The notes beneath the pieces were generated by a model. That model ran no database searches. It was not told the origin of the DNA and saw only the letters and a list, made by a program, of their open reading frames with translations. From a bacterium (lineage in GTDB: Bacteria > Bacillota > Clostridia > Christensenellales > CAG-138), in NCBI GenBank assembly GCA_022778545.1, contig JALFDW010000041.1, positions 1,483-65,482 of the forward strand: 64,000 nucleotides of DNA. Reading direction: 5' to 3'. Each line of letters begins with the position of its first letter. Position 1 is the stretch's first letter. The translations under genes were made by a program, and so were the position numbers. Below, one piece after another: positions 12,499-64,000 of the stretch.

Positions 12499-12513
12499 GG
12501 AGGTCTTTGTACT

Positions 12514-14510: not shown

Positions 14511-14530
14511 ACAAAACGAACAACAACAAT

Positions 14531-14562
14531 GCCTGCCCGCATTTTGCGGGCGGGCTCTTGTT
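14531..14562 (+). terminator. Hairpin terminator after the transporter genes
   Basis: GCCTGCCCGCA pairs with TGCGGGCGGGC, followed by TCTTGTT. Confidence 0.5.
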
Positions 14563-14654
14563 AGTATAACAGAGTTTTTCGCGAGCGAGTAGCCGGACGT
14601 ATGACAAAACCGCCGCGAGCAAGAAATCAGCAATAAAAAGGAGAAACAATTCAA

Positions 14655-15482: not shown

Positions 15483-15520
15483 TGAACGATAAAAGCAAAT
15501 TGAACAGGAGGAACTGCCCG

Positions 15521-16906
15521 ATGAACATCAACGACAATTTTGAGTTTCTGAACATTGGCCTGCCGGAGGATATTCTCCGCCGCAAAAACTGGGGTGACTT
15601 TGAGGGTGCGGTGCGCCTGATCGACAAGCGCCTTGCCGGCAACATCCCGGATGCGCTGCGCGCGTGCCTCATCTGTGAACGCGAAATGATCCTCCGCCTC
15701 GAGAATGATTATCCGTTCAGCGAAGCGCAGGCGATCGAGAAGATCCAAAGCGCCATTCCGGATTTCACGGAAGCGGAATTCCACGAAATGGTGGATGACA
15801 ACAAGATCGACTGGATCTACGTCCATGGCGAGCCGCACTATTTCCTGCGGTTCTATCAGACGCTGATCAAGACGGACGCTGCGTTCGCGGAGCGCGCGGG
15901 TGTCGCGGATCGCGGCCGCGTGGACGGCGAGGACAGCGACACGGCAAAGGAAAGCGTGCTGGACCGTGCAGCGCGGCTGATGCGGGAGAACGGCAAGCTC
16001 AGCAACCGCATTCGCATCCGCGCAAGCATGCGCATCAAGGATGAATATTTTGAAAAGGGCAAGCGCGTGCGCGTGCATATCCCGATCCCCGCAGCCTGCA
16101 TCCAGCAGAGCGAGATCAAGCTCGTTGGCTTCTCCTCGGAGCCGACCTATGTCGCGCCGGAAGACGCGCCGCAGCGCACGGTGTACTGGGAAGAAGTCAT
16201 GCAGGAGAACCATCCGTTCTGGGTAGAGTATTCCTATGTGCATACCGCGCCCTACGTTGACCCGATGAAGATCGTTCCGGATGCGGAGCAGCCCACGTTC
16301 TTCACCAACGAGGAGAACCCGCACATCGTGTTCACGCCGTACATCAAAGAGCTCGTCAAGACGCTCACCAAGGGCGTGACGAACCCGGTGGAAAAGGCGC
16401 GCATCTTCTATGATTTCGTGACGCTCAACGTGAAGTATTCCTTCATGCGGGAGTATTTCGGCCTCGAGAACATCGCCGAAAACTGCGCGCGCAACTTCAA
16501 GGGAGACTGCGGCGTGCAGGCGCTGCTGTTCATCACCCTTTGCCGCTGCGCGGGCATCCCGGCGCGCTGGCAGAGCGGCCTTTGCGCCCAGCCCGGCGAC
16601 GTCGGCATGCATGACTGGGCAATGTTCTACGTTGCGCCCTATGGCTGGATGTTTGCCGACCCCTCCTTCGGCGGCGGCGGACACCGCGCTGGCAATGAAG
16701 CGCGCAGGGTGCACTATTTCGGCAACCTTGACCCGTACCGCATGGTGGCAAACTGCGAATTCCGTGCACCGCTTGACCCGCCGAAGACGCATTGGCGGCA
16801 TGACCCGTATGACAACCAGGCCGGCGAGATCGAATACGAAGACCGCGGGCTGCGCGGGCCGGAGTACGAGCGCGACATGGAAATGACGGAATATACAGAG
16901 CTGTAA
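15521..16906 (+). CDS. Transglutaminase-like (cysteine-protease fold) domain protein
   Basis: Core NFKGDCGVQALLFITLCRCAGIPARW...HDWAMFYVAPYGWMFADPS (Cys-His-Asp arrangement). The ATG at 15521 follows the RBS AGGAGG. An alternative start at 15482 overlaps the upstream stop. Confidence 0.75.
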   Translation: MNINDNFEFLNIGLPEDILRRKNWGDFEGAVRLIDKRLAGNIPDALRACLICEREMILRLENDYPFSEAQAIEKIQSAIPDFTEAEFHEMVDDNKIDWIYVHGEPHYFLRFYQTLIKTDAAFAERAGVADRGRVDGEDSDTAKESVLDRAARLMRENGKLSNRIRIRASMRIKDEYFEKGKRVRVHIPIPAACIQQSEIKLVGFSSEPTYVAPEDAPQRTVYWEEVMQENHPFWVEYSYVHTAPYVDPMKIVPDAEQPTFFTNEENPHIVFTPYIKELVKTLTKGVTNPVEKARIFYDFVTLNVKYSFMREYFGLENIAENCARNFKGDCGVQALLFITLCRCAGIPARWQSGLCAQPGDVGMHDWAMFYVAPYGWMFADPSFGGGGHRAGNEARRVHYFGNLDPYRMVANCEFRAPLDPPKTHWRHDPYDNQAGEIEYEDRGLRGPEYERDMEMTEYTEL

Positions 16907-29518: not shown

Positions 29519-31543
29519 TTGAAAAAACTGAAGACGCCGCTGATTTACCTTGCCATCATCCTCGTGATCGTCATCGCCATCACGGGGCTTGAAAAGGGCA
29601 ACAGCGCCGAAAGCAAAAAGATCGAATACACGGATTTTGTCGCGATGGTCAAGCGCGGCGAGGTCGCCATGGTGGAGATCACCGAGCGTGAGCTCGTCGG
29701 CCTGAAGAAAAACTCCGAGATCAAGGCGGATCTCTTCCCTTCCCGGTATGATTTCTACTGCTTCATCCCGTCCGAGGAGAGCTTCCGCAACGCCATGAAT
29801 TCCATTGCCGCGGAGCTTACGGGCAAGGATGTGAACACCATCACGGAAGCGGATTATGCGTTCCAGTATACCTATAACCCGCCGCCGGAGGCTTCCATTT
29901 TCGAGATCCTCCTGCCTTACCTGCTGATCCTTGGTGCGTTCGCGCTCTTCTATTATTTCGTGTTCCGTTCGCAGGGCGGCGGCAACCAGATGATGAACTT
30001 CGGCAAGAGCCGCGCGCGCACGCATATCGACCCGCACAACAAGGTCACCTTTGCGGATGTGGAAGGCGCGGATGAGGAAAAGGAAGAGCTCAAGGAGGTC
30101 GTGGAATTCATGCGGGCTCCCAAGCGCTTCACCGAGATGGGCGCGCGCATCCCGAAGGGCGTGCTGCTCGTGGGCCCTCCGGGCACGGGCAAAACGCTGC
30201 TTGCCAAGGCTGTTGCAGGCGAGGCGCAGGTGCCGTTCTTCTCCATCTCCGGTTCGGACTTCGTTGAAATGTTCGTGGGCGTGGGCGCAAGCCGTGTGCG
30301 CGACCTGTTCAGCACCGCAAAGAAGTGCGCACCCGCCGTGGTGTTCATCGATGAGATCGACGCGGTCGGCCGCCAGCGCGGCGCGGGCCTCGGCGGCGGG
30401 CATGATGAGCGCGAGCAGACGCTCAACCAGCTCCTCGTTGAGATGGACGGCTTTGCCGCGAACGAAGGCATCATCGTTATCGCTGCGACGAACCGCCCGG
30501 ACATCCTCGACCCGGCGCTCCTGCGCCCAGGCCGGTTCGACAGGCAGATCACCGTCAACTATCCGGATGTGAAGGGCCGTGAGGCGATCCTGCGTCTGCA
30601 TGCGAAGGGCAAGCCCATGGCGGAGGATGTGGACCTTGCGGTGCTTGCAAAACGCACGCCGGGCTTCACGGGCGCGGACCTTGAAAACGTGCTCAACGAG
30701 GCGGCAATCCTCGCTGCCCGCTTCAAAAAGAAGAAGATCTCCATGATCGAGCTGGAGGAGGCCATCACCCGCACGGTGGTCGGCCCCGAAAAGCGCAGCC
30801 GGGTCATCACGCCGGAGGACAAGCGCATCACGGCGTATCACGAGGCGGGTCATGCCATCGTGGCGAAGAAGCTCAAGAACTGCGACCCTGTGCATGAAGT
30901 TTCGATCATCCCGCGCGGCATGGCGGCAGGCTACACCATGACCATGCCGGAGAATGACGACAACCACATGTCCCGCGGGAAGATCCTGGATGAGATCGCC
31001 ATGATGCTTGGCGGCCGCGTTGCGGAGACCGTCGCGCTCGACGACATCTGCACCGGCGCTTATAATGACCTGCAGCGCGCCACGGAGCTTGCGCGCAAGA
31101 TGGTCGTGGAATTCGGCATGAGCGACGAGATCGGCCCCGTGTTCCTCGGTGGCCAGACGGAGGTGTTCATCGCCAAGGATTGGGGCCACCAGCGCAACTT
31201 CTCCGAGCAGGTGGCGGCCCGTGTGGACGCGGAGATCCGCCGCATCCTCGAGGAACAGTTCGCCCGCGCCCGCGAGGCGATCGAATCCGATCTGCCGGCG
31301 ATGGAGCGCGTCGTTGCGGCACTGATCGAATATGAGCGCATCACCGGCGAAGAGTTCGAGAAACTCTACGACGGCGAGGAAGTGCAGCTTGTTTCCTACC
31401 GCGAGAAGCAGACCGTCCTCGAAACGGCCGACCCTGAGGTGCTTGCCGAGGAGGAAGCCGAGCGCAAGCGCAAGGAGGAAGAAGCGCGCCGCAAGGCGGA
31501 GGAAGAAGCCGCAAAGGCGCAGGCTGAGAAAAAGGACGAATAA
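29519..31543 (+). CDS. ftsH: ATP-dependent zinc metalloprotease FtsH
   Basis: TTG start after the RBS CAGGAGG. It has an N-terminal TM segment, the AAA module [13 protein letters not shown], the zinc motif HEAGHAI and a Lys/Glu-rich tail. Confidence 0.96.
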
Positions 31544-51225: not shown

Positions 51226-52932
51226 TTAATCAATGATGAACTGGGTGATCCGGCTGCCGCCGTTCACCATCGGGCGCACCATTTCGTCCTGGTCGATGGC
51301 GCAGTCGATCACATAGCCGTGGTTCCATTCCATGGCCTCTTTGATAGCGGCCTCAAGCTCCTGCACGTTCGATACGCGCTTCCCGCGCAGACCGTAGGCT
51401 TCCGCGAGCTTTACGAAATCGGGCGCACGGTCGAGCGTGGTTTCGGAGTAGCGCTTGTCGTAGATCAGCGTCTGCCACTGGCGCACCATGCCGAGCGTTT
51501 TGTTGTTGAACACGAAGGTGATGACCGGGATGTCATAATACTGCTCCGTGGCAAGCTCGTTGCAGTTCATGCGGAAGCTGCCGTCCCCGGTGATGTGGAT
51601 GACGGTCTTTTCCGGGTTGCCCGCCTTCGCGCCGATGGCCGCGCCGAGGCCGAAGCCCATCGTGCCGAAGCCGCCGGAGGTCAGAAGCTGGCCGGGGTAA
51701 TCGAAGTGGAAGTGCTGGATGGCCCACATCTGGTGCTGCCCTACATCCGTGGCGACCATGGTGTCCATCGGCATGAGCCGCGCGATGGCGTCCGTGATCT
51801 GCTTGGGGGTCAGGGTGCTTCCGCCTTCGTCGTATTCCGTTTCCGTCTTGAAGGAGAAAACGTAATCCTTCCACGGGGTGTGATCCATCGGCTCAAGCTC
51901 GTCGAGCAGCATTTGCAGCACGCGCTTCGCATCGCCGATGATGTGGTGGTCGGTCTGCACGTTTTTGTTGATCTCCGAGCGGTCGATGTCGATCTGCACG
52001 ATTTTGGCCTGGCTCGCAAAGCTTGCCGGGTCAAGCGCCAAGCGGTCGGAGAAGCGGCAGCCCACGGCGATGAGCAGATCACAGCTGTCGCAGGCCATGT
52101 TGGAGGCCTGGGAGCCGTGCATGCCGATCATGCCCGTGGTGAGCGGGTTGCGCCCCTTGAAGCCGCCGCCGCCCATGAGGGTCACGGCAACGGGCGCGTC
52201 GATGCGCTCCGCAAATTCCAGAAACTCGCGGTCCGCCCGGCTGCGCACCACGCCGCCGCCGCAGATGAGGAGGGGCTTTTGGGAAGCGCGGATCATTTCG
52301 ACCAGCTTGTGCACGTCATGCTGATCCGGCTCCGGTGCGCGCAGGTCATGCGAAGCGCGCTTGATGAGCGCGCCGAGCCGCCCTTCAGAAGCATGCGCTT
52401 CCCGGGGCAGGGGGGTGAATTCCGCCATTTGCGCCGTTGCGTTTTTCACGATGTCGATGAGCACCGGCCCCGGCCTGCCGCCGCGGGCGATGGCGAACGC
52501 TTCGCGCAAGATGTCCGCAAGCTTTGCGGCGTCGCGCACCATGTAGTTGCACTTGGTGATGGGCATGGTGATGCCCGTGATGTCAACTTCCTGGAAGGAG
52601 TCCTTGCCCACGAGGTTTTCCGCCACGTTGCAGGTGATGAACACCACAGGGGAAGAATCCATGTAGGCCGTGGCGATGCCCGTGGTAAGGTTGGTGCACC
52701 CCGGGCCGGAGGTGGCAAAGCACACGCCCACTTTGCCGGTGGAACGGGCATAGCCGTCCGCCGCGTGGGAAGCGCCCTGCTCGTGCGCGGTCAGGATGTG
52801 CCGGATCTTGCCGCGGTAGCGGTAAAGCTCATCATAAACATTCAGAATGGTGCCGCCGGGGTAGCCGAAAATGGTATCGACGCCCTGTTCGAGCAGGCAT
52901 TCCATCAGAATTTTTGCGCCTGTCATCTGCAT
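51226..52932 (-). CDS. ilvB: Acetolactate synthase large (catalytic) subunit
   Basis: MQMTGAKILMECLLEQGVDTIFGYPGG.... The ThDP motif is GDGSFRMNCNELAT. An upstream in-frame Met lacks an RBS. Confidence 0.95.
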   Translation of the reverse strand: MQMTGAKILMECLLEQGVDTIFGYPGGTILNVYDELYRYRGKIRHILTAHEQGASHAADGYARSTGKVGVCFATSGPGCTNLTTGIATAYMDSSPVVFITCNVAENLVGKDSFQEVDITGITMPITKCNYMVRDAAKLADILREAFAIARGGRPGPVLIDIVKNATAQMAEFTPLPREAHASEGRLGALIKRASHDLRAPEPDQHDVHKLVEMIRASQKPLLICGGGVVRSRADREFLEFAERIDAPVAVTLMGGGGFKGRNPLTTGMIGMHGSQASNMACDSCDLLIAVGCRFSDRLALDPASFASQAKIVQIDIDRSEINKNVQTDHHIIGDAKRVLQMLLDELEPMDHTPWKDYVFSFKTETEYDEGGSTLTPKQITDAIARLMPMDTMVATDVGQHQMWAIQHFHFDYPGQLLTSGGFGTMGFGLGAAIGAKAGNPEKTVIHITGDGSFRMNCNELATEQYYDIPVITFVFNNKTLGMVRQWQTLIYDKRYSETTLDRAPDFVKLAEAYGLRGKRVSNVQELEAAIKEAMEWNHGYVIDCAIDQDEMVRPMVNGGSRITQFIID

Positions 52933-52999
52933 GTATAAAAAATCCTCCAAAACCCGCCTGCCGCCGCGCTCCACGGCGCGAAACGGGATGTTATTCTTT

Positions 53000-53731: not shown

Positions 53732-53861
53732 GTATCGCCGAAACGGCAATGGCGCTTTGGCTTATTGAGGATTATCGGAATTCATGATAAGCTAAAATAT
53801 ATATCTGTAATCATTTATGTCTGCTCTGATTTATAACCGGTGAGCTGTGCGGAGGAAAGCA

Positions 53862-54680
53862 ATGGCTACAAAAACTGGGAATAATGGGATTATTTTGTTC
53901 CCTGACTTTCAGGCGCTGAAAGATGAAGTCGAAAGAATGAAAACCGAGCTCTCCATGCTCCTGTCGGAAAGAGATGAGCTTCAGTTTGTCGTGGCTAAAA
54001 ACATAAATGCCCGGTATATGCTTGAACTGGGAAGCCTGGAATATAAAGCATATAAAGCACAGTGCGCGGCGCTGCGGCTGAAACGAAAAATCGAGCTGAT
54101 TCAAGCGCTGAAGAACAGGCAGGCGCCTGTTGTTATGGCAAATGTTGAGGAGACGCTCGATGCCGAGTTTGCAGCGTATCAGCAGAAGCTCGAAGAGCAA
54201 ATGGAAAAGATGAACGAGGCGATAGAAAGAAGCCAGTGCAGGGAACTGTCTTCCGAGGAAAACAGGGAATTTAAGAAGCTTTACCGGGAGGTGGTAAAGC
54301 TTCTCCACCCGGATTTGAACCCCGATGCATCAGAAGCACAGATCAAACTTTTTGAAAATGCTGTGCAGGCATACAGGAGCGGCGACCTTGGCACCTTGAG
54401 AATGATCCATGAAATGATTGCAGGGCAGCAGTCGATGGATGATGCCGGTCAGGACACATGGAGCATTCTTCGTGAACAACGCGAGGAATTGGCCGGGATG
54501 ATCGCGGCTGTTCGGGAAAGCATTGCAAGAATTAAGGCGGAATATCCGTTTACCGTTTTAGAAATATTGAATGATTCAGAGAAGTTGTCAGAGAGAAGAA
54601 AAGAACTGGAATATATAATGGATTACTATAATGAACTGATCCAATTCTATGCAGCAAAACTGCAGGAAACCTTGAGGTAG
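53862..54680 (+). CDS. J-domain (DnaJ-like, HPD motif) coiled-coil protein
   Basis: ATG is 6 nt after GGAGG. FKKLYREVVKLLHPDLNPDASEAQIKLFENAVQAYRSGD matches J-domain helix II-HPD-helix III, with HPD at 54306-54314. Heptad-rich sequence flanks it. Confidence 0.7.
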   Translation: MATKTGNNGIILFPDFQALKDEVERMKTELSMLLSERDELQFVVAKNINARYMLELGSLEYKAYKAQCAALRLKRKIELIQALKNRQAPVVMANVEETLDAEFAAYQQKLEEQMEKMNEAIERSQCRELSSEENREFKKLYREVVKLLHPDLNPDASEAQIKLFENAVQAYRSGDLGTLRMIHEMIAGQQSMDDAGQDTWSILREQREELAGMIAAVRESIARIKAEYPFTVLEILNDSEKLSERRKELEYIMDYYNELIQFYAAKLQETLR

Positions 54681-54684
54681 GGCT

Positions 54685-55088
54685 ATGAGCGATATCATTA
54701 AAAATCTGATGGGAAAGGCGGCATAATCGGCTTTTTTCACAGCCGGAACGGTAGCCTTACGATTCCTCAGCCTTTTGAAAGAGATATTTTTCTGTTCGAT
54801 ACGCATGTTGCAGGCACGACGCATATTGCAGGGATTGAGGAATTGGAGCCTCAGTTGAAAATTGATGAAAGGCTGAACTTTTTCAGGGAACCGGACAACC
54901 CTTACGATGAGCAGGCGATCGTGATTAAAACGGAAAACGGCGTGAAAATCGGTTATGTTCCGCAATCGGACAATGTCATCTTTGCCCGCTTGATGGATGC
55001 AGGGAAACTGGTGTTTGGCCGCATATCTCACAAAGATAAAATTGGCAATTGGATCAAGATCGACATTAAAATCTTTCTGCACGAATAA
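54685..55088 (+). pseudogene. HIRAN-domain gene interrupted by a frame change (frameshifted pseudogene, sequencing indel, or -1 recoding)
   Basis: ATG at 54685 (RBS GAGG) opens a 13-codon frame that ends at TAA 54724. The HIRAN domain (FLFDTHVAGTTHIAGIEEL...REPDNPYDEQAIVIKTENGVKIGYVP) is open in the -1 frame from 54702 to 55088. The heptamer G_GGA_AAG lies at 54711-54717. Confidence 0.6.
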
Positions 55089-55533: not shown

Positions 55534-56400
55534 TTATCTGCAGAGCCGCTTATCAGCCCGATAGATGAGCCTGGATACCTGCGCGCTGATCTGGTTTTCA
55601 TCGCCGGTGTCAAGCTTGAGCGATTCATCGGTGATCGCTTTGAACGACAACGGCTTGCGGATTTCATCGGCCTGGATGCCGAACTTGTCTGCAACAGACA
55701 TCAGGGCTTTGGCATATGCCGTGGATGCCCCATATTCGGCAAGCATCCTGGCGATGGCTGCAGGCTTCATTGCAAGATGTTTTGCGCAAAGCCTGGCAAG
55801 CACCTCTGCCGGCCTGTTGGCGAGCAGAGAGATTTCCCTGATGATCTCATCCTTCTTTACGAGGTAAAGCTCGTTTACTGTCTCCTTTGCGATGACTTCA
55901 TCTTCGGGCGTGTTCGGATCGGCGATGAAATCCTGAATCTCGGAGCTGTTTTCGCCGGATGCGTCTGCGCCCTTCACCTTATCCTGAAGGCTCACAACGG
56001 CGACACCGGCTGGAGGGAGCTTCCTCAACTGATCATATACACAGTTGTTAATGGTACGATATACATAAAACACCTGTTTCTCAAGAGGCTGCGCAAGGAT
56101 ATGGTCCATCTTGCTGAAAACATGGGCCAGAATGTCTCCGCGGATGTCGTTGAGATCGAATCCCCGGGAAACAAGAGTGCGGATTTTCTCGGCATTCCCT
56201 TCAACAATCTCGCTTTTGGAATTGCGGTGCGTCTTGCTCGCAAGGGCATAGTGGTTGATGAAATCCTGAACGGCGTACCACAAATCCGCACAAAGCGCTT
56301 CATTGCTGGGCGCATTGAGCTCTTCTTTGGAAGTGATGCTGTGCTGATTAATGATTGAAAGGACAGTCGCGAATCTGCTATAATATTTATTAATATTCAT
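55534..56400 (-). CDS. Divergent sigma-70-family-like protein (region 2 and region 4 similarity)
   Basis: 288 aa. DIRGDILAHVFSKMDHI...VFYVYRTINNCVYDQLRK resembles sigma region 2. The C-terminal ISAQVSRLIYRADKRL resembles the region 4.2 recognition helix. It is divergently transcribed from the cluster to its right. Confidence 0.45.
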   Translation of the reverse strand: MNINKYYSRFATVLSIINQHSITSKEELNAPSNEALCADLWYAVQDFINHYALASKTHRNSKSEIVEGNAEKIRTLVSRGFDLNDIRGDILAHVFSKMDHILAQPLEKQVFYVYRTINNCVYDQLRKLPPAGVAVVSLQDKVKGADASGENSSEIQDFIADPNTPEDEVIAKETVNELYLVKKDEIIREISLLANRPAEVLARLCAKHLAMKPAAIARMLAEYGASTAYAKALMSVADKFGIQADEIRKPLSFKAITDESLKLDTGDENQISAQVSRLIYRADKRLCR

Positions 56401-56596: not shown

Positions 56597-57292
56597 ATGA
56601 GTTGGATTTCAAAGCTGAAAGACAGGAAATATTACATAGACTTCGATTCCGGGTGTGTCTATGAAAATGATACTGTCGTCGCAGAGATCACATCACCTAC
56701 ACATATCAATATTCTTCTTTATTTTGCGGATCATCCCGAAATGTGGCTGAAGAAGGACGGCATCATCAGCAATTGCTGGCCCGATACAGCAGACGCAGAG
56801 TATGTTTCGGACGGAACTTTTTATAAACAAATACACGGCGTCACGCACATTCACATTAAAGTGGGCGAAAGTATTGAATCAAGGCGTGGCATGGGTTATA
56901 AATACCACGGATTACGAAAAGAAGAAATAACGGATGATCCAAAGAGGGAAACTGCCGAAAAACGCCTTTGTATTCCGCAAGGCGGAAAGAAAGCAAGCGA
57001 TGAGCCCTCCTTAGCCAGAAACGATGATAATGTCATTAAACTTGCTTCTCTGCTGGTTCATAGAAACGGCCGGGAGCATCCTAAAATAGATGAAGAATTG
57101 GAGCTTGAAATCCGCTATATCATAGAGCTTCTGGAACAAGGCCTGAGTGAGGATTTTGAAGAAATCTGTGAACAAGCCTGGGAGGATTTGAGCTTAATGC
57201 AAAAAGCTCTGCGGATTTTCAAGGCATATGAGAACCTGACGGACAGGTCTCGAAATATGTCACCGGATGACACGAACACCAGATTACAATAG
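56597..57292 (+). CDS. OmpR/PhoB-type winged-helix DNA-binding protein (no receiver domain), acidic C-terminal half
   Basis: The N-terminal 105 aa fit the trans_reg_C pattern: AEITSPTHINILLYFADHPEMWLKKDGIISNCWP...VSDGTFYKQIHGV...IESRRGMGYKYHG. Confidence 0.6.
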   Translation: MSWISKLKDRKYYIDFDSGCVYENDTVVAEITSPTHINILLYFADHPEMWLKKDGIISNCWPDTADAEYVSDGTFYKQIHGVTHIHIKVGESIESRRGMGYKYHGLRKEEITDDPKRETAEKRLCIPQGGKKASDEPSLARNDDNVIKLASLLVHRNGREHPKIDEELELEIRYIIELLEQGLSEDFEEICEQAWEDLSLMQKALRIFKAYENLTDRSRNMSPDDTNTRLQ

Positions 57293-57304: not shown

Positions 57305-59068
57305 ATGGCGGAAAACATGAATCTTGAGGGCAAGGAAAGGCTGTTTAAGGAGTTCTCTCATTTTTCTGTCGGCGAGAAGAACCCCTCCAAGATTTTCACG
57401 CACAGGCAAAGAGGAAAGTATGTTGGTGGAGTTCCCCTTGCATACGATGCGGAACGCGGCCTGATCGCCATAGATTCATCGGACACACATACTTTGGTGT
57501 GGGGGTCAACCGGCTCGCTCAAAACCAGATGCGTCATTGAGCCGGCAGTCAAAATCATCGGCAAATCCGGGGAGAGCATGATCATCAATGACCCAAAGGC
57601 CGAGATCCATAACCGCTGTGCGGCGGAGCTGAAAGACGAAGGATATAACATTATCGTTATTAACATTCGCGACCCGGAATTTGGCAACTCCTGGAATCCT
57701 TTGGCGATTCCGTACAGATTCTATCTTTCCGGGGATATTGACAGGGCTGCTGAATTCGCAAACGATGTGGCCCACAATCTCATGACGGAGGAACGCTCAA
57801 CAAAAGATCCATTTTGGGATTACAGCGCCTCCGACTGCCTGTTCGGCCTGATCCTTTTCCTGTTCAGATATGCGAAGGATCATAATTTGGATGAGTCTGT
57901 GGTGAATATGAGCAGCCTCATGAAATTGAGGCAGCAGTTATTCAAGACGAATACCGGTGCATTCAAGCCGCAGGGTTCTCTTCTTTGGAAATATGCGTCG
58001 GAAGATGAACTGGTTGAAGCGAGCCTGAGCGGATCCGTTTATGCCCCGAATGATACCCGGAATTCGATTTTATCCACCTTTGACCAGAAGATGCGGACCT
58101 TTACGATTCGCCCGTCTCTGCTGGATATGCTATCCAATAACGATATCGATATTGGAGAGATCGGGGAAGGAAAATGCGCTGTTTTTCTCATTATTCCTGA
58201 TGAAAAAAACACCTATAATAATCTGGTAAGCCTTTTTATCAAGCAGGCGTATGAGTACCTTATTTATAAGGCATCCTCGAACGATGATCTCAAGCTGAAG
58301 CACAGGGTGAATTTTGTGCTGGATGAGTTCGCATCCCTTCCCCCTATTTCCTCCATGTCAACCTTGATTTCAGCCGCACGATCCCGCGATATCAGGTTTA
58401 TCCTTGCCGTTCAAGGCAAACACCAGCTGATTAAGAGATATGGCGATGAAGCGGAAACGATCAAAAGCAACTGCGTTAACTGGATCTACCTTACCAGCCG
58501 GGAATACGACCTGCTGAAGGAGATTTCAGACCTTTGCGGCGAGCAGCGCAACCGCACACCGAACTTGTCGGTTTATGACCTGCAGCACTTCAGCAAAGAA
58601 AAATGCGAGGCGCTTGTGTTATGCGGCAGATTGAAACCCGCCAAGGTGAACCTTCTGGATATTGACAGGTTTGGCGACAAAGAGTACACGATCCTTGAAT
58701 TTGCCCGCCTCCCGAGAAAACCCAGGCAAACTACCAACTTTGCGTTGTCGGAAGAGATCAAACACCGGCTTGCCCCGGTCCTGAGCGACAGGCCGGTCGA
58801 CGCGGAAAGCAGGAACCCGTATATCCCCCCTGTTTCGCGAAAGCCTGTGCCGCATGATCCGCCAGCTGTTGTTTCAAAAGTCATTGAAACCTCTGTTGCT
58901 GGCGCAAAGAAGAAAAGCGTCAATGAAGTTTTGCAGCTCAACCTGGAGGCAATGGGCATCCGCTCTCAGGAGGATCTTGACGGCCTCATTCGTCAAACCA
59001 ACAAAAGAATAGCCGATCTTGAAACGGAAAAAGCGGCTTTGGACCCGGACGGCGGCGACAAGAAATAG
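57305..59068 (+). CDS. VirD4/TraG-family type IV coupling protein-like ATPase, no N-terminal membrane anchor, atypical Walker A
   Basis: Walker A-like GSTGSLKT (57503-57526). INDPKAE, NSWNPL and Walker B VNFVLDEFASL...RSRDIRFILAVQGKHQLIKRYG match T4CP signatures. No hydrophobic N-terminal segments. The C-terminal ~110 aa are low-complexity. Confidence 0.85.
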   Translation: MAENMNLEGKERLFKEFSHFSVGEKNPSKIFTHRQRGKYVGGVPLAYDAERGLIAIDSSDTHTLVWGSTGSLKTRCVIEPAVKIIGKSGESMIINDPKAEIHNRCAAELKDEGYNIIVINIRDPEFGNSWNPLAIPYRFYLSGDIDRAAEFANDVAHNLMTEERSTKDPFWDYSASDCLFGLILFLFRYAKDHNLDESVVNMSSLMKLRQQLFKTNTGAFKPQGSLLWKYASEDELVEASLSGSVYAPNDTRNSILSTFDQKMRTFTIRPSLLDMLSNNDIDIGEIGEGKCAVFLIIPDEKNTYNNLVSLFIKQAYEYLIYKASSNDDLKLKHRVNFVLDEFASLPPISSMSTLISAARSRDIRFILAVQGKHQLIKRYGDEAETIKSNCVNWIYLTSREYDLLKEISDLCGEQRNRTPNLSVYDLQHFSKEKCEALVLCGRLKPAKVNLLDIDRFGDKEYTILEFARLPRKPRQTTNFALSEEIKHRLAPVLSDRPVDAESRNPYIPPVSRKPVPHDPPAVVSKVIETSVAGAKKKSVNEVLQLNLEAMGIRSQEDLDGLIRQTNKRIADLETEKAALDPDGGDKK

Positions 59069-59082
59069 CAGGAGGTACGCAA

Positions 59083-60132
59083 ATGGCCAAGAAAGTTACC
59101 ATAACCGATTATGAATCCCCAAACACGGAGGAAACAAAAGAAGCCGGGAAAAAGAGCTCCGCAATGCTTTCCGTTAAGCAGGCGGCAAACATCTGTCAGG
59201 GGTACATCTTTGAGATCAAACGGGCCGAAAGGTACAACGAAGATAACCCTGTGGCCCGTGAATCGCTGTATGAAACAGTGGCGGAACTCACCGGCCAGCA
59301 AACGCAGGTGGGTAATTCCGATCAGTTTCACAACTTCGCAGCAACTTTGGGCGGAAACGGGTTCGACAACCTGGCATGTGATGTGCTTGACTGCGGCCTG
59401 GCCCGGTTCCCAATGAATGTGGATCTCCTTGCGGACTATCTGATTTACGGGATCGATTGCGAAAGGTTGGATCAATGCGCTGCACATTTTGCGACGCTTG
59501 AGTCCATTGAGCAGTCCGAATGGACATGGCGATGCTTCGCGTTCGGAATCGCCTATATGAACAGGCTTCGGGATTGCTTTGCCACCACGGCTGAAGAACG
59601 CAATCGCTATAAGAAAAAGGCTGCCGAGCTGGCAAGAGCATACAAGAGGCATCTTCCTTATGAGGAAGGGGGCTATAGAGAGACCGCAAAGCTTATGGCA
59701 AAGAAGCCGGATGCCATGCTGAAACTGCTCAACGATGCCCTGTCAAATGAACTGTTGGGCTCTTGCCCGACCTGTGCATTCGAAAAGGCGGAACTTCTGT
59801 TTAAACAGAAAAAGTATGAAGAAGCGCATGAAGCGATTGACCGCAGCCTTGAAGATTCCATCAACCAGACCCAAGGTGGTGTCAAGGAGAACTATCTCCT
59901 CTTTTTGAGGGGTCTGTGCGATTATGCGCTCCTGCTGCAAGGCGTCCGTGCCGGAACCCCCATCAAAGAAGAGAGCGTTCTGGGTATTTATGCTGACTTT
60001 AACAAAGCCCTGCGTGAGCTTGACGAAAACTACAGGGCAAAAATAAGGATAAGAACGCAGGATCTTGTTGAGGGCACAAAGGTTCAGGTGCCCGATGATT
60101 TGGAAAGGTTGTTGGAGCTGATAGAATTCTGA
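59083..60132 (+). CDS. Hypothetical alpha-helical repeat (TPR-like) protein
   Basis: 349 aa, predicted all-helical with TPR-like stretches (e.g. FEKAELLFKQKKYEEAHEAIDRSLE). The gene is tightly spaced after the T4CP-like gene. Confidence 0.45.
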   Translation: MAKKVTITDYESPNTEETKEAGKKSSAMLSVKQAANICQGYIFEIKRAERYNEDNPVARESLYETVAELTGQQTQVGNSDQFHNFAATLGGNGFDNLACDVLDCGLARFPMNVDLLADYLIYGIDCERLDQCAAHFATLESIEQSEWTWRCFAFGIAYMNRLRDCFATTAEERNRYKKKAAELARAYKRHLPYEEGGYRETAKLMAKKPDAMLKLLNDALSNELLGSCPTCAFEKAELLFKQKKYEEAHEAIDRSLEDSINQTQGGVKENYLLFLRGLCDYALLLQGVRAGTPIKEESVLGIYADFNKALRELDENYRAKIRIRTQDLVEGTKVQVPDDLERLLELIEF

Positions 60133-60215
60133 TAGAATAAAGATCTGCATACAAAGATACTGCGGATCTGTGAGAAGGGGAATCCGTTTTTTGCGGTTTT
60201 TACGTGGAGGCGTAT

Positions 60216-60674
60216 ATGGCTGATAGGAAGAACGATCAAAATTTCAATGAGGAGGAGCAGAATAAGAGGATCGGCGAAATCCCGAAAGCCGCCCCGTTTG
60301 CTTCGCTGAATAAAATACTGGAGGAGAGCCCCGAATTTAAGAACATTTTTGATTTGGCCGCGAACGTTTACGATGACGACTTATCTGCGGAAGAAATGGT
60401 CGAAGTCGAATGTGTTGAAATTGATGGCAATAACTATTTTGCTGCCAAAAGAATCGAAATTGCCGGGACCACCTACCTGTGCCTTGTAAATGAGAACGAT
60501 GTTATGGACTATATGATCCAAAAAGTTGTGATAGAAGACGGCGAAGAGTATATAACCGGATTGGATTCCGACAGGGAATTCGATCTTGTCCAGGCATATA
60601 TTCAGCGTGACTTTTTAATGGCGCTGAAAGAAAAGCTCCAGAAAGCTGACGAGGGCACACCCGGCGATCAGTAA
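60216..60674 (+). CDS. DUF1292-like small acidic protein
   Basis: ATG follows GTGGAGG. VEVECVEIDGNNYFAAKRIEIAGTTYLCLVNEND...IEDGEEYITGLDSDREFDLVQAYI resembles the DUF1292/UPF0473 pattern. Confidence 0.45.
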   Translation: MADRKNDQNFNEEEQNKRIGEIPKAAPFASLNKILEESPEFKNIFDLAANVYDDDLSAEEMVEVECVEIDGNNYFAAKRIEIAGTTYLCLVNENDVMDYMIQKVVIEDGEEYITGLDSDREFDLVQAYIQRDFLMALKEKLQKADEGTPGDQ

Positions 60675-60700: not shown

Positions 60701-60736
60701 GGACCTTAGATCAATGATCCGAGGTCCTCTTTTCTT
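60701..60736 (+). terminator. Rho-independent terminator
   Basis: GGACCTTAGATC pairs with GATCCGAGGTCC (one 2x2 internal mismatch), followed by TCTTTTCTT. Confidence 0.55.
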
Positions 60737-60875
60737 GTTGGATGAAGAGGCCAGCCGAAACGGCGCGGCTTTCCCAAAAATGCAAAAAAATATGGAAAGA
60801 AACGTGGAGATTTCCCGATTTGCCTCCGTATACAGAGACAGAACCGCAAAACAAAACACGAAAGGATATACGAAA

Positions 60876-61607
60876 ATGAGCAAATATGAATTCAAGGCAA
60901 CCAACCTGATCGCGGAGACCTTTGAAAAGCGCAGCGTCCGTTTTGATGTCAAAGATATGGGTGGGGACGAAGTGGTCTGTGCCGGTTTTTCGATCGACTG
61001 TGGCCCCAAAGTTATTATGCAGTTCATCTGCAGCGATAACGACAACGATGTGGCAGTACGGATCTTCGGCGTCATAACCAAAACGCCCAAAGAAAAACGC
61101 TCCCGTGTCATGGAAGCCTGCAACATTCTGAACCGCAAGGTCCGTTATGTGAAGTTCTATGTTGACGGTGACGGCGATATCAACGTTGAGTACGATTTTC
61201 CCGTGCATACGCCCGATGAAGGTGTCGGTGAGATTGCGTTTGAGATCTTCCTTCGCATGATGATGATCCTTGACTCTGAATACAGCATCTTTATGAAGGC
61301 TCTTTATACTGATGAAGAGCTCGCCAGGCTTCAGGATTATGGTATCCCCGAGAAGCTGGTGCAGAAGCTCCAGGAACTCCGGGAGAAGAGTGAGACTCGC
61401 AAGGCTGCTGCCGGCGAGGCAGGGGAGGAAGAGCCCGCCGTTGAGGATCATGATATCCATGAGGAACTGATGCAGAAGCTCCAGGAACTCCGGGAGAAGA
61501 TTGAGGCCCGCAAGGCTGCTGCCGGCGAGGCAGGGGAGGATGAGGATCCGGATGATTCCAATCTGGATACCGAGGAGGACGGCTCTCTTGAGGAGCTTCC
61601 CTTCTGA
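60876..61607 (+). CDS. YbjN-like (type III secretion chaperone-like fold) protein with a duplicated acidic C-terminal tail
   Basis: I prefer the ATG at 60876 because the longer ORF starts inside the upstream terminator. The core MSKYEFKATNLIAETFEKRSVRFDV...DNDVAVRIFGV...VKFYVDGDGDINVEYDF fits the YbjN pattern. The tail ends ...EEDGSLEELPF. Confidence 0.5.
   Translation: MSKYEFKATNLIAETFEKRSVRFDVKDMGGDEVVCAGFSIDCGPKVIMQFICSDNDNDVAVRIFGVITKTPKEKRSRVMEACNILNRKVRYVKFYVDGDGDINVEYDFPVHTPDEGVGEIAFEIFLRMMMILDSEYSIFMKALYTDEELARLQDYGIPEKLVQKLQELREKSETRKAAAGEAGEEEPAVEDHDIHEELMQKLQELREKIEARKAAAGEAGEDEDPDDSNLDTEEDGSLEELPF
61361..61540 (+). repeat. Two 69-bp direct repeats (66/69 identical), 111 bp apart, within the coding sequence
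   Basis: Both 61361-61429 and 61472-61540 read GCAGAAGCTCCAGGAACTCCGGGAGAAGA...CGCAAGGCTGCTGCCGGCGAGGCAGGGGAGGA. They encode QKLQELREK.E.RKAAAGEAGE twice. Confidence 0.85.
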
Positions 61608-61658: not shown

Positions 61659-61692
61659 GAAGAGGAGGGCTAAACAACCCTCTTCTTTTTTC
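61659..61692 (+). terminator. Rho-independent terminator
   Basis: GAAGAGG pairs with CCTCTTC, followed by TTTTTTC. Confidence 0.6.
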
Positions 61693-61825: not shown

Positions 61826-62041
61826 ATGAGGAAAATGAAGGGCTTTGAAGACATCAGGTGCATTGGAAATGGGGCTCTCAAGGGACTGGTCATGGAAGAA
61901 TCTCCCAACTCGCTGCTGATTGCTGCGAGAAAGAAGATCTATGTCCCTGAAAAGAAGATCGTCCTTATGGATCAGATCACCGAACAGGAGGCCCTGTTCA
62001 TAAAAAGCGCTGCGAAACACAAAGGAGGTTTGATTGTATGA
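61826..62041 (+). CDS. Small hypothetical protein translationally coupled to ClpP
   Basis: ~70 aa (MRKMKGFEDIRCIGNGALKG...). The RBS AAAGGA lies upstream. Its stop overlaps the ClpP start (ATGA at 62038-62041). The start could instead be 61835. Confidence 0.45.
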   Translation: MRKMKGFEDIRCIGNGALKGLVMEESPNSLLIAARKKIYVPEKKIVLMDQITEQEALFIKSAAKHKGGLIV

Positions 62042-62628
62042 ATTATCTTATGAAGAAGGCCACCAACCTGAGCGGGCAGGACATGATGCTGACGCCGCTG
62101 GATATCGACTATGCTCACCGCACCATTCTTCTTACCGGTGAAATCGATGAGGATGTTGCAACGGTAGTAAATTCCGCTCTCAGGTGCCTTGCCAGGGATT
62201 CGGATGAGGATATCACCATCTACATTCAGAGCCCCGGAGGATCTGTTTCCGCCGGCCTCAGTATCCATGATACTGCAAAAGCACTGAAATGCGACATCGT
62301 TACAGTTGCCTGCGGCATGGCAGCAAGCATGGGAGCTTTCCTTCTGGCTGCTGCCGGGACAAAAGGGAAACGCTGGTGCCAGCCCAACGCTGAAGTGCTG
62401 ATCCATCAGCCGCTTGGCGGAACGACCGGCCAGGCAACGGACATCCGCATTCATGCAGAGCATATTCTCAATACCCGCATAAAGCTCAACCGCATTTTTG
62501 CCGAGTGTACCGGCCAGCCCTTCGATAAGGTCGAGAGCGATACCGAACGGGACTACATTATGAGTGCAGAGGAAGCGCTTAAATACGGGCTTGTCGACAA
62601 GGTCGGAGATCCTGTTTCCGAATGGTAA
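62038..62628 (+). CDS. clpP: ATP-dependent Clp protease proteolytic subunit (ClpP paralogue)
   Basis: 196 aa, collinear with canonical ClpP: ILLTGEIDEDVA...IYIQSPGGSVSAGLSIHD...GMAASMGAFLLAAG (Ser)...LIHQPLGG (His)...DTERDYIMSAEEALKYGLVD (Asp). Confidence 0.93.
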   Translation: MNYLMKKATNLSGQDMMLTPLDIDYAHRTILLTGEIDEDVATVVNSALRCLARDSDEDITIYIQSPGGSVSAGLSIHDTAKALKCDIVTVACGMAASMGAFLLAAAGTKGKRWCQPNAEVLIHQPLGGTTGQATDIRIHAEHILNTRIKLNRIFAECTGQPFDKVESDTERDYIMSAEEALKYGLVDKVGDPVSEW

Positions 62629-62653
62629 ACGAGGCTTTAAACGGAGGTTACAA

Positions 62654-63433
62654 ATGAAGCGTTGCGATATTACGAAACCAATCGGGCTTGACACGCTCTG
62701 CGCGGAGGTCGAGAGCACTTGCAGCAAGGCCCATATATTTAAGCGGTGCGGCCTGCGCCCGCAGCATTTGATCGTCCCTCTGGACCCCGGCTGCGGAAGA
62801 ACGACGTTCATGGAATATATGACCGATCAGTATAAAAAGGCGGGTGTTTTGGAGTTCACCAGCGGCCTGGATGACTATATCGAAGTCACTTTTGACGGCA
62901 CGCTTCCGCAGCTCAAACGGGTATTTGCCGCGATTGATTCCGCAGCTGTGTATACCAATGAATACTGCAACATCATTGGCATGGATATCAGCGGCATTGC
63001 CGCTCACCTCGGCGAAACTCAGCTCGCTGAGTTTATGAAAAACTGCAAGCGGGTTTGCGATCACGCCTGCGTCGTCTTCTTTGTTCATGCTGTACCGAAC
63101 AGAAACGAGGAAAAGCTTTTGGAGAAGCTGTGTGAAACTGTCGGCAGCGTCAAACGCCTCACGGTCGAACCTTACACGAAGGATGACATGTGCGCCCTGA
63201 TCATCAAGGCTGTTTTGGATCACGGCATCGAAATCCGGCATGAGGCAGCGTTCCAGTCGGAATTGTCGGATATGGTTTCCGCATGCTGCATATCCGACGT
63301 CAGGGAAGCGATCGCCGCAGCGGATACCATCGTCCATTTTGCCGATTTTTCAGGCTTTACGCCCGTTGTTGACGAGACCAGCCTGAAGTCTGTGATCGCA
63401 ATCCGGCATAATCAGGCCAGCATCATGATGTAG
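62654..63433 (+). CDS. SpoVK/CbbX-like AAA+ domain protein with degenerate Walker A and B (probable pseudo-ATPase)
   Basis: ATG is 7 nt after GGAGG. The order LIVPLDPGCGRTTFMEYM...AGVLEF...IIGMDISG...VVFFVHAVP...LTVEPYTKDDM parallels SpoVK/CbbX. The Walker A Lys is replaced by Arg (62786-62806) and the Walker B DE is replaced by DI. Confidence 0.55.
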   Translation: MKRCDITKPIGLDTLCAEVESTCSKAHIFKRCGLRPQHLIVPLDPGCGRTTFMEYMTDQYKKAGVLEFTSGLDDYIEVTFDGTLPQLKRVFAAIDSAAVYTNEYCNIIGMDISGIAAHLGETQLAEFMKNCKRVCDHACVVFFVHAVPNRNEEKLLEKLCETVGSVKRLTVEPYTKDDMCALIIKAVLDHGIEIRHEAAFQSELSDMVSACCISDVREAIAAADTIVHFADFSGFTPVVDETSLKSVIAIRHNQASIMM

Positions 63434-63449: not shown

Positions 63450-64000
63450 ATGAGCCGAAGTGAACGTTGGAATACCGCAGGCGAAATCAAGCGCAGGTTT
63501 CATGAAACCACAGACCCGATGAATGGTGCGGGCCCGGTCATATATGTTGAGAACGGCAGGAAGTACTCCGATGACAGCGAGTCGCACATCGCTGTAATTG
63601 GCCGCACCGGCAAGGGGAAAAGCCAATGCTGCAGCCTCCCGTTTATGAGGGAGATCTTCAGGAAGGGAGAAAGCCTTATCATGCTTGATCCCAAAGGGGA
63701 AGGTTACAGGAGAAACGCCTGTTATATTCCGGCTGAATATCAGGTTTTCTGCGTGGATTTCCGCAACCCGAGAAAAAGCCCCACAAAGTGGAATCTTTTC
63801 CGCTGCATCGAGAGATTGTTCCACTCCGAAGATCCGGACGACAAGGACATTGCAAGTTCAATGATCAGTGAGCTTTGGAAGGGGGTCTATCCCTACGATG
63901 GCCATTCAGAAAAGTTTTGGACGGATTCATCCATAAACTATGCCAAAGGTCTGACCTATGGTTTGCTTGAAACTGCATCCGAAGAGCAGACCAACCTTGA
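63450..64000 (+). CDS. Second VirD4/TraG-family T4CP-like ATPase (N-terminal part; 3' end outside the window), no membrane anchor
   Basis: Open from ATG 63450 (RBS GAGAGGAG) to the window end. Canonical Walker A GRTGKGKS (63600-63623), then MLDPKGEGY and PTKWNLF (the T4CP DPKGE / WNP motifs). No hydrophobic N-terminus. Confidence 0.8.
   Translation, partial: MSRSERWNTAGEIKRRFHETTDPMNGAGPVIYVENGRKYSDDSESHIAVIGRTGKGKSQCCSLPFMREIFRKGESLIMLDPKGEGYRRNACYIPAEYQVFCVDFRNPRKSPTKWNLFRCIERLFHSEDPDDKDIASSMISELWKGVYPYDGHSEKFWTDSSINYAKGLTYGLLETASEEQTNL

Follow-up and report, generated by a model that had tools for sequence, protein, structure and literature searches.

A ClpP paralogue linked to a degenerate AAA+-fold protein and a soluble VirD4-like ATPase on chromosomal islands of Clostridia

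How does a ClpP protease operate where no Clp unfoldase is encoded nearby? To our knowledge, the partner of every characterised ClpP is a hydrolysing AAA+ unfoldase that docks via IGF-type loops. The question is raised by a 64,000-nucleotide stretch of Clostridia DNA (GenBank assembly GCA_022778545.1, contig JALFDW010000041.1, positions 1,483 to 65,482; hereafter the window), in which a clpP paralogue is preceded by a small open reading frame (sORF) and followed by the genes for a degenerate protein of predicted AAA+ fold, here called AAA*, and for a soluble VirD4/TraG-like ATPase resembling type IV coupling proteins (T4CPs), here called T4CP2. The order ClpP, AAA*, T4CP recurs in more than 40 fetched loci, down to AAA* identities of about 25-28%, and is not a chance arrangement. 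We propose, with a probability of roughly 0.45, that this trio is one functional unit and, together with the sORF, makes up the conserved centre of a larger, uncharacterised gene system that gut and rumen Clostridia carry on islands in their chromosomes.

The four genes lie head to tail on the + strand at 61.7-64.0 kb of the window, each behind a strong Shine-Dalgarno sequence: the sORF (61835..62041, 68 aa), the clpP paralogue (62038..62628, 196 aa), AAA* (62654..63433, 259 aa) and T4CP2 (63450..64000, cut by the window end). The sequence-only reading of this DNA had described a stop of a ~70-aa ORF overlapping the clpP start and a 259-aa ORF placed 25 nt after clpP, and both are exact: the sORF TGA (62039-62041) overlaps the clpP ATG (62038) as ATGA, and 25 nt separate the clpP stop from AAA*. 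The AAA* stop and T4CP2 are 16 nt apart. As that reading had also stated, no ClpX, ClpA, ClpC or ClpE gene is encoded in the island or elsewhere in the 64-kb window, and the gene downstream of AAA* encodes a VirD4-like ATPase and not ClpX, so the locus is not an ordinary clpP-clpX pair. Outside the island, the Clp/AAA housekeeping genes of the window are limited to those for ClpB (3447-6038, + strand; TIGR03346, 1362 bits) and FtsH (29519-31543, + strand; TIGR01241, 817 bits). ClpB is not a partner of ClpP.

Is the paralogue an active protease? Its product matches Pfam PF00574 (CLP_protease) with 212.8 bits (gathering score 20.2; E = 4.6e-63) over profile positions 14-180 of 182, and among PDB sequences it is closest to 3qwd_A (E = 1e-56), whose entry names the proteolytic subunit of an ATP-dependent Clp protease; PDB ClpP chains align with it only from residue 27 on. 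It falls below the cut-offs of the housekeeping families (203.7 vs 308.6 bits for TIGR00493; 215.1 vs 249 bits for NF001368, PRK00277). The equivalents of E. coli S97, H122 and D171 are invariant in 19 of 19 aligned ClpPs (the window protein and 18 relatives). Thus, the Ser-His-Asp triad that had made the protein look functional is not substituted, and the paralogue is predicted to be catalytically competent.

The surface onto which a Clp ATPase would dock has changed. Residues were numbered by alignment to the ClpPs of E. coli and B. subtilis, and we take the IGF/LGF pocket to consist of E. coli L48, F49, Y60, Y62, F82, I90, M92, F112, L114 and L189. Across the close family, this pocket carries the conserved replacements L48R, F49C, Y60T, F82A, M92C, L114Q and L189G; Y62 is the sole identical residue, and V90 and W/Y112 stay similar. 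In three trio ClpPs from divergent loci, F82A/S and L189G recur and L114 is again lost, here to T or A, while the other pocket positions vary. The canonical N-terminal gating loop, PxVIEQTxRGER, is replaced in this clade by MNYLxKKxxNLNGQDM, and the clade ends in a family-specific C-terminal IGDPxSEW. Because the replacements in the pocket and the N-terminus are conserved within the clade, they point to a dedicated partner and not to decay. Since both the pocket and the loop are changed, any docking onto this clade would probably not follow the ClpX/ClpA mode.

Alternatively, the island ClpP could work with the host machinery, either in mixed tetradecamers with the housekeeping ClpP, in the manner of ClpP1/ClpP2 systems, or with host ClpX, ClpC or ClpE. 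Host proteolysis would then be re-targeted, and AAA*-T4CP2, as a pair that senses DNA or protein, would share a transcript with clpP but not its function. The near-canonical character of the protein (E = 1e-56 to 3qwd_A) and its well conserved handle, triad and oligomerisation core would suit such a role, and degenerate pockets are typical of the ring of ClpP1P2 that does not bind the ATPase. Against this stand the clade-wide conservation of the replacements, which speaks for a dedicated partner, and the gene order described below; we consider this use of host machinery unlikely.

Is the 259-aa neighbour of ClpP a AAA+ protein? It is annotated as a hypothetical protein at NCBI, and so is every homologue whose source name was seen. 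AAA* had no match in Pfam or PADLOC and nothing relevant in a PDB profile search; NCBIfam and PHROGs returned noise or marginal clamp-loader matches only (holA, E = 0.0056; ribosomal S20, E = 0.2), and weak AAA_22 matches appeared in 6 of 68 diverse members (best E = 0.008). AlphaFold2, run on a 47-homologue alignment, gave a five-stranded alpha/beta domain with a helical lid (pLDDT, the predicted local distance difference test score, 90.4; pTM, the predicted template modelling score, 0.85), and with E<=1e-3 as the limit Foldseek retrieved 254 PDB chains for this model. Leading the list were RuvB (8efy_F, E = 5.4e-8; RuvB TMq 0.60-0.65), CbbX (3syk_A, E = 7.8e-8), FtsH, RFC and other clamp loaders, and ORC/Cdc6; in a viral structure library the matches were giant-virus AAA proteins, RFC and one 'Stage V sporulation protein K' (TMq 0.64). 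The model thus assigns AAA* to the AAA+ fold. The proposed SpoVK/CbbX/EccA affiliation stands insofar as CbbX and SpoVK are among the best matches; because RuvB, FtsH and clamp loaders match about equally well, the predicted fold does not place AAA* securely in any one AAA+ clade.

An exhaustive hidden Markov model (HMM) search collected 392 AAA* clusters at 50% identity, 248 of them at E<=1e-10. The best 150 clusters range from 95 to 338 aa and are mostly 240-270 aa long, so AAA* is a stand-alone family. The window protein, whose gene has GGAGG 5' of its start, reads ...PLDPGCGRTTF... and ...NIIGMDISG..., and the GCGRTT and MDIS motifs noted earlier are therefore present; their degeneracy is a property of the whole family, as motif counts over 134 aligned members show. 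G46 is kept in 111/134 and G48 in 126/134, and position 49, the site of the Walker-A lysine, is R in 74, Q in 47, H in 4 and K in a single member. Positions 50 and 51 are mostly Thr or Ser, which gives a Walker A of the form GxG[R/Q]TT. The Walker-B D111 is present in 106/134 and is followed by I, V, A or L with no conserved Glu (hhhh-D-[IVA]-[ST]). R/K150 is frequent (74/134) and not conserved, and no invariant Arg was found past sensor 1. Among the few motifs conserved across the broad family is an N-terminal PIGL; this and the RPxH...GxGRTT stretch are collinear with the LIGL and GxPGTGKTT of SpoVK-type proteins. The PIGL corresponds to the AAA+ N-linker, which contacts adenine. We read AAA* as a pseudo-ATPase that keeps a putative nucleotide site, with glycine-rich P-loop, Thr pair, N-linker Gly and Walker-B Asp, and has lost the catalytic residues.

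One relative, P0140 (338 aa), is 70% identical to AAA* over its N-terminal ~115 aa, up to MDIS, is unlike AAA* in its remainder and ends in a canonical SpoVK-type P-loop (MRFTGAPGTGKTTVARIVGQ). Either the assembly is chimeric at this point, or the protein is a fusion or recombinant of natural origin. Comparison of AAA* (alignment A1) with the SpoVK-like part of P0140 by hhalign aligned only the P-loop stretches, with a probability of 6.5%.

How constant is the trio? The related loci (numbered with the prefix L) were sampled as identical, 50-97% identical and ~25-30% identical AAA* relatives, the divergent members individually. A VirD4-like gene (~500-680 aa) follows AAA* in every locus that extends downstream, with a 4-nt overlap in L009, L012, L034, L035, L037 and L038. 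Wherever a locus reaches far enough upstream, a dedicated ClpP stands immediately 5' of AAA*, L034-L037 being the exceptions; the two genes are 13-25 nt apart or overlap, and this linkage holds for AAA* proteins that are only ~28% identical. In L037, the slot 5' of AAA* is filled, again with a 4-nt overlap, by a transmembrane HExxH protein homologous to cluster c7, which elsewhere follows the M50 peptidase; no ClpP fragment was detectable in the 58-254 nt available upstream in L034-L036. Because L034-L037, which represent two divergent branches, lack ClpP in this slot, AAA*-T4CP is the deeper pair and the protease its usual third member. This modifies the proposal that the adjacent AAA* could be an adaptor or gating factor of ClpP: AAA* is the usual 3' neighbour of clpP, but has a tighter bond to the T4CP gene, which it keeps in branches that lack clpP. 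For a ClpP that works with host machinery the gene order cuts both ways: a AAA*-T4CP pair without clpP in two branches would be expected, whereas ClpP is tightly joined to AAA* even in very divergent members.

The trio is chromosomal and confined to Clostridia, except for one 4-kb contig of an 'Eggerthellaceae' bin that is possibly mis-binned. Searches with AAA* by tblastn gave zero matches in 72,556 PLSDB plasmids and 50,697 INPHARED phage genomes, and IMG/VR contained a single contig. In the complete genome of Hominifimenecus sp. rT4P-3 (NZ_CP167068, locus L026), a 12-gene operon ends at T4CP2 and adjoins MatE and purA. Literature searches found no published description of a ClpP-AAA*-VirD4-like trio.

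What is the third member? T4CP2, cut by the window end, is 611 aa long in the identical locus L001 and contains the Pfam domains T4SS-DNA_transf (E = 2e-29), TrwB_AAD_bind and TraG-D_C; TrwB is the sole PDB sequence match of the T4CP-like protein. Its Walker A GRTGKGKSQ (starting at about residue 51) and an RSRN...LQ motif are conserved. It scores 177.8 bits with the NCBIfam model CD1115, below the cut-off of 250, and neither it nor T4CP1, a second VirD4-like protein of the island, contains a 19-residue window that reaches a Kyte-Doolittle value of 1.6, as a membrane anchor would. As a rule, the final 68 aa of T4CP2 form a domain similar to the C-terminal domain (CTD) of the ribosomal protein bL12 (L7/L12) (L001 3572-3775, beyond the window end). 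This domain was matched over its full length in the PDB profile search (E = 1.1e-3 to 4.9e-3) and by Pfam Ribosomal_L12 in 6 of 12 orthologues, and it is absent from T4CP2 of L025, L026, L027, L028, L030, L037 and L042. SCOP groups the bL12 CTD fold with the Clp adaptor ClpS.

Could one of the trio dock onto ClpP through a canonical loop? The IGF/LGF-type loops that had been suggested as a check were sought in AAA*, the sORF and T4CP2, and several candidates were rejected. The IGF of T4CP2 (TIGFST) lies in a conserved segment (IGITIGFSTNSW) in which it varies to IAF, FGF and FCF, and which we read, from its resemblance to other T4CPs, as a probable core strand. The PIGL/IGL of AAA* represents the N-linker common to AAA+ proteins, and L037, which has no ClpP, retains it. 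The ADFSGF of AAA* is variable at its G and F positions.

What, then, could the trio do? Since no other member has an intact ATPase site, T4CP2 may be the motor or sensor. AAA* might bind nucleotide without turnover and be an obligate subunit of T4CP2 that catalyses nothing itself and serves as its adaptor or regulator. The two would engage the protease and so link proteolysis to the work of the VirD4-like motor, which would use ATP to handle a protein or nucleoprotein substrate; ClpP would be the usual enzymatic output, replaced in one branch by a membrane HExxH protein that is presumably a metalloprotease. A trio-specific interface would fit the changed docking surface of ClpP, the absence of a nearby Clp unfoldase and the tight translational coupling. 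Judged by the variable neighbours described below, the role of the system would be conflict with invading DNA or competitors, and not conjugation or housekeeping proteolysis.

Several observations weigh against this proposal, which we put below even odds: (i) clpP is missing from two divergent AAA*-T4CP branches, and since the pair survives without it, ClpP is not indispensable to the pair; (ii) no conserved IGF/LGF-like loop was found in AAA*, T4CP2 or the sORF; (iii) contact between ClpP, AAA* and T4CP2 is putative; (iv) we know of no VirD4/FtsK-type motor that serves a compartmental protease; (v) Gln occupies the P-loop position in one third of AAA* members, which makes nucleotide binding itself uncertain; (vi) PADLOC-DB v2.0 models match none of ClpP, AAA* and the sORF (E<=0.1); and (vii) the conflict or defence role is read from the gene neighbourhood. 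As for the sequence-only reading, what it observed is confirmed and what it made of this is partly supported.

A bolder form of the proposal is that the trio represents a new class of ATP-dependent compartmental protease. A hexameric RecA-fold translocase of the VirD4/FtsK type would take the place of an AAA+ unfoldase at the ClpP barrel, an AAA+ protein that binds nucleotide but cannot hydrolyse it would be the adaptor that bridges their symmetries, and the complex would do the effector or processing work of a modular conflict system in Clostridia. We regard this as doubtful. Such a protease might, for example, destroy proteins that arrive with foreign DNA, such as relaxases or phage proteins. 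What makes the idea worth pursuing is a ClpP clade that appears intact at its active site, is altered exactly at its docking surface and is fixed beside a dead AAA+ protein and a soluble conjugation-type motor. If a complex forms, it would add to the mechanisms by which Clp proteases are known to be powered or gated, and VirD4-like ATPases would gain a role outside conjugation. If none forms, the trio is still a widespread, unannotated island module of Clostridia (392 clusters) and a candidate new conflict system. Hominifimenecus sp. rT4P-3 has a complete genome deposited without a metagenome-assembled genome label, so direct testing may be possible.

What is the small gene upstream of clpP? 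Its candidate starts are 61727 (104 aa), 61826 (71 aa, the choice of the sequence-only reading) and 61835 (68 aa). The commonest length among 149 sORF homologues is 68 aa, and a GAGGA Shine-Dalgarno sequence lies just 5' of the start at 61835. The product is highly conserved (mean column identity 86% in alignment A2) and keeps a C-terminus reading ...KNKGGLIV. An HMM built from the same alignment places it directly 5' of clpP in 26 of 47 sources; it is absent from divergent trios. Its AlphaFold model reached a pLDDT of 41.7, which gives no confident fold. A ubiquitin-like identity was considered on the strength of the C-terminal GG plus LIV and of E1 and JAB genes in related islands; it is unsupported, given the low pLDDT and the presence of other small ORFs next to E1 in L045.

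Could ClpP, alternatively, be an ATP-independent processing peptidase, like phage prohead proteases and NfeD, that acts in a cascade with M50 and HExxH proteins? It would then mature or destroy the 68-aa sORF product or a chaperone-bound cargo, and AAA*/T4CP2 would act before or after it and would not be its motor. Such a cascade would agree with a sORF whose translation is coupled to that of clpP and whose product is strongly conserved and, taken alone, predicted to be disordered; it would also suit the M50 and transmembrane HExxH genes that recur directly after T4CP2 and the swapped protease of L037. ClpP also has clear matches to head-maturation (prohead) proteases and to NfeD1b_N, but these are far weaker than the canonical ones (E = 1e-22 to 1e-39 vs 1e-63). 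A cascade centred on the sORF is further at odds with its presence in just 26 of 47 sources and its absence from divergent trios, and leaves the strict ClpP-AAA*-T4CP order unexplained. A processing peptidase of this kind seems to us rather improbable.

The M50 site-2-type peptidase that recurs after T4CP2 (L001 3790-4764) has a weak match to the NCBIfam daptide intramembrane metalloprotease model (E = 9e-8). The c7 protein, also recurrent after T4CP2, is a 373-aa HExxH protein with multiple transmembrane segments (L009 13628-14749).

Is the second VirD4-like protein of the island part of the same unit? T4CP1 (57305..59068, + strand, 587 aa) is a soluble ATPase with a VirD4-type Pfam match (E = 5.9e-38), and it reaches the NCBIfam conju_CD1115 cut-off (260 vs 250 bits). 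Its Walker A is an unusual GSTGSLKT; in the orthologues of the window, L021, L026 and L029 the motif is G[AS]TGS[LK]KT, in which the Gly before the Lys is replaced, and the Walker B DEF is intact. T4CP1 forms a recurrent companion module with a tetratricopeptide repeat (TPR)-like protein and cluster c20, sometimes with cluster c19 between them, in L021, L026, L027, L029, L031 and L045. Only T4CP2 thus belongs to the conserved trio, and T4CP1 to a separate, often co-occurring module. Of the T4CP-like motors that had been suggested to supply ATPase activity, T4CP2 alone is obligately linked and may have this part. The constant T4CP1 neighbour is the TPR-like 349-aa protein of cluster c15 (59083..60132, + strand; weak TPR_2 and ANAPC3 matches), which directly follows T4CP1 in 5 of the clustered loci and in the same order in L031 and L045. 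The next gene of the module encodes the small acidic c20 protein, which is weakly DUF1292-like (60204..60674, + strand); an 88-aa gene at the corresponding position of L045 carries Pfam DUF1292.

These coupling proteins raise the possibility that the island is what remains of an integrative conjugative or mobilisable element, or an accessory to one, in which the VirD4-like ATPases are true coupling proteins for a type IV secretion system (T4SS) encoded elsewhere and ClpP and AAA* are cargo or regulators of transfer. That T4CP1 passes the CD1115 cut-off would agree with this, as would the low GC of the island (0.48 vs 0.60), the integrase and S24 repressor that flank the related island L009, and the FtsK/SpoIIIE-like ATPase and weakly TrbL-like transmembrane protein encoded downstream. 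Yet the neighbours annotated with Pfam in the examined loci include no relaxase, VirB4, VirB6, PrgI-like or other T4SS domain, although a T4SS may be encoded elsewhere in the genome; T4CP2 stays below the same cut-off, and T4CP1, T4CP2 and the FtsK-like protein all lack a membrane anchor. Moreover, core genes bound the operon in the complete genome L026, and AAA* is unmatched in the 72,556 plasmids. A conjugative origin is very unlikely in our view; together with the lack of plasmid and phage matches and the single IMG/VR contig, the lack of T4SS and relaxase domains led us to reject a conjugative-element or prophage origin.

What surrounds the trio in the window? The island has a low GC content (0.46-0.52 vs ~0.60) and starts just past the T-box leader of an ilvB-like core gene. 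This leader (Rfam RF00230; 53025-53274, - strand; 91.6 bits where the gathering score is 93; E = 1.8e-19) lies upstream of the ilvB-like ORF (51226-52974, - strand), which is the last core gene before the island and was named by eye from its sequence and not by a profile scan. Rfam matched the T-box alone and no RNA family in the leader of the sORF. On its left side the island encodes a 277-aa protein with a weak J-domain match (53847-54680, + strand; DnaJ, E = 9.5e-4), an 81-aa stand-alone HIRAN domain protein (54843-55088, + strand; E = 1.7e-15) and a 288-aa ORF with no Pfam match (55534-56400, - strand); in the 97%-identical island L031, a PARG/ADP-ribosylglycohydrolase (ARG)/NADAR protein stands upstream in place of the window's left-island genes. 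The upstream unit begins with a 231-aa protein that had a weak winged-helix match (Trans_reg_C) in the Pfam/NCBIfam scan (56597..57292, + strand), and the best promoter-like site (56355-56384) lies 5' of this gene.

Between the T4CP1 module and the sORF lies a gene for a YbjN/TY-Chap1-type chaperone-like protein (60714..61607, + strand; YbjN E = 1e-9, TY-Chap1 E = 1.9e-6). Its start is likely to be near 60780, because the L031 product is 275 aa long. A 111-bp tandem repeat (1.9 copies, 89% match; 61333-61544) duplicates an acidic KLQELREK..RKAAAGEAGE in its tail; YbjN paralogues occur in L031, L032, L037 and L045, and those of other islands also end acidic. An ADP-ribose paper from the Aravind laboratory covers the TY-Chap1/YbjN chaperone family and not the ClpP-AAA*-T4CP module. 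Between the YbjN-like gene and the sORF, a terminator-like hairpin with an 11-bp stem and a T-run was picked up by a consensus scan (61659..61688, + strand), which suggests that sORF-clpP-AAA*-T4CP2 may be transcribed separately or under attenuation; terminator-like sites were no more numerous in that scan than expected from shuffled sequence.

Compared across the window, L031 and L032 (97% identical), the island runs from the PARG/ARG/NADAR gene, the 288-aa opposite-strand gene, the 231-aa winged-helix-like gene and T4CP1 through the TPR-like, DUF1292-like and YbjN/TY-Chap1 genes to the sORF, ClpP, AAA* and T4CP2. L031 and L032 have an extra 83-aa gene between YbjN and the sORF that is not among the window's listed ORFs. 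The genes 3' of T4CP2 encode an M50 peptidase, a 610-aa lipoprotein, a second YbjN, a transmembrane protein and a 1070-aa FtsK/SpoIIIE-like ATPase.

Why propose a conflict role? Modules inserted between and around the island genes, all on the same strand, vary among islands. A vWA-like, PP2C and kinase module with a transglutaminase occurs in L012, L016, L026 and L038, and a Cap2-like E1 with JAB, transglutaminase, Band-7, an 847-aa HerA/mad8-like ATPase and Colicin-DNase/WHH in L009, L014, L017-L019 and L027; other insertions are an amidoligase with GGACT and WD40 giants. In L038, the next genes 3' of the trio (10840-16774) are those of a retron reverse transcriptase (PADLOC RT_Ec107-like, E = 8e-105) and of type I restriction-modification. 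The first 23 kb of L045 (1-23171) are a single same-strand array of about 25 genes with nearly all modules: T4CP1-TPR, DUF1292, ASCH/Tpt1, SprT-like, YbjN, the transmembrane protein, the FtsK-like ATPase, JAB, E1, DUF2625, transglutaminase, sORF, ClpP, AAA* and T4CP2. Since L045 joins modules that are seen apart elsewhere, the modules make up one shuffled supersystem. PADLOC gave weak HerA/mad8 matches to the T4CP-like proteins and to the 847-aa neighbour. TerY-PP2C-kinase triads are reportedly linked to FtsK-like ATPases in a 2012 paper on 'Ter-dependent stress response systems'. A conserved core, shuffled modules, displacement of the protease and defence-gene neighbours are typical of conflict systems, and this is why we infer such a role from the neighbourhood.

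How does the trio compare with known systems? It resembles ClpXP, ClpAP and ClpCP in combining, in one operon, a ClpP with an intact triad and a protein of AAA+ fold, in an order that recalls clpP-clpX. Unlike their ATPases, AAA* is a single 260-aa module without the Walker-A Lys, the Walker-B Glu, an IGF/LGF loop or a substrate-binding N-domain. Pocket and N-terminal loop of the island ClpP are non-canonical, and the sole intact ATPase here is a RecA-fold VirD4-like protein, a class not known as a partner of ClpP. Mycobacterium, Listeria and Clostridioides likewise have an extra ClpP with an intact triad and a diverged docking surface and N-terminus; both of their ClpPs (ClpP1/ClpP2) are housekeeping proteins that use ClpX or ClpC, whereas the paralogue described here is island-borne and strictly linked to AAA*/T4CP2.

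With VirD4, TraG and TrwB, including the CD1115 proteins of Clostridial conjugative elements, T4CP2 shares the domain set, a canonical Walker A and the arginine/glutamine motifs, and T4CP1 reaches the family cut-off. The T4CPs of the islands differ in having no N-terminal anchor and no linked relaxase or T4SS in the examined loci, and in belonging to chromosomal operons; T4CP2, in addition, is obligately paired with a pseudo-AAA+ protein and carries the bL12-CTD-like C-terminus. SpoVK, CbbX and EccA share with AAA* an IGL N-linker and a collinear RPxH..G.G.TT, and are among its best structural matches, but AAA* has no significant Pfam AAA or AAA_lid_6 match, no catalytic Lys or Glu and no conserved arginine finger that we could identify. 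Finally, Sir2-HerA and DUF4297-HerA combine in defence islands a hexameric ATPase of the FtsK/HerA superfamily with an enzymatic effector, and systems such as IetAS combine an ATPase with a protease. We know of no anti-phage activity for a ClpP-AAA*-T4CP2 system, and it departs from these HerA/FtsK-effector systems in that the effector is a self-compartmentalising ClpP, an extra pseudo-AAA+ subunit is present and the core has no PADLOC match to ClpP, AAA* or the sORF. Thus, ClpP-AAA*-T4CP2 seems to be a variant, apparently undescribed, of both the Clp proteases and the conflict systems that pair an FtsK/HerA ATPase with an effector.

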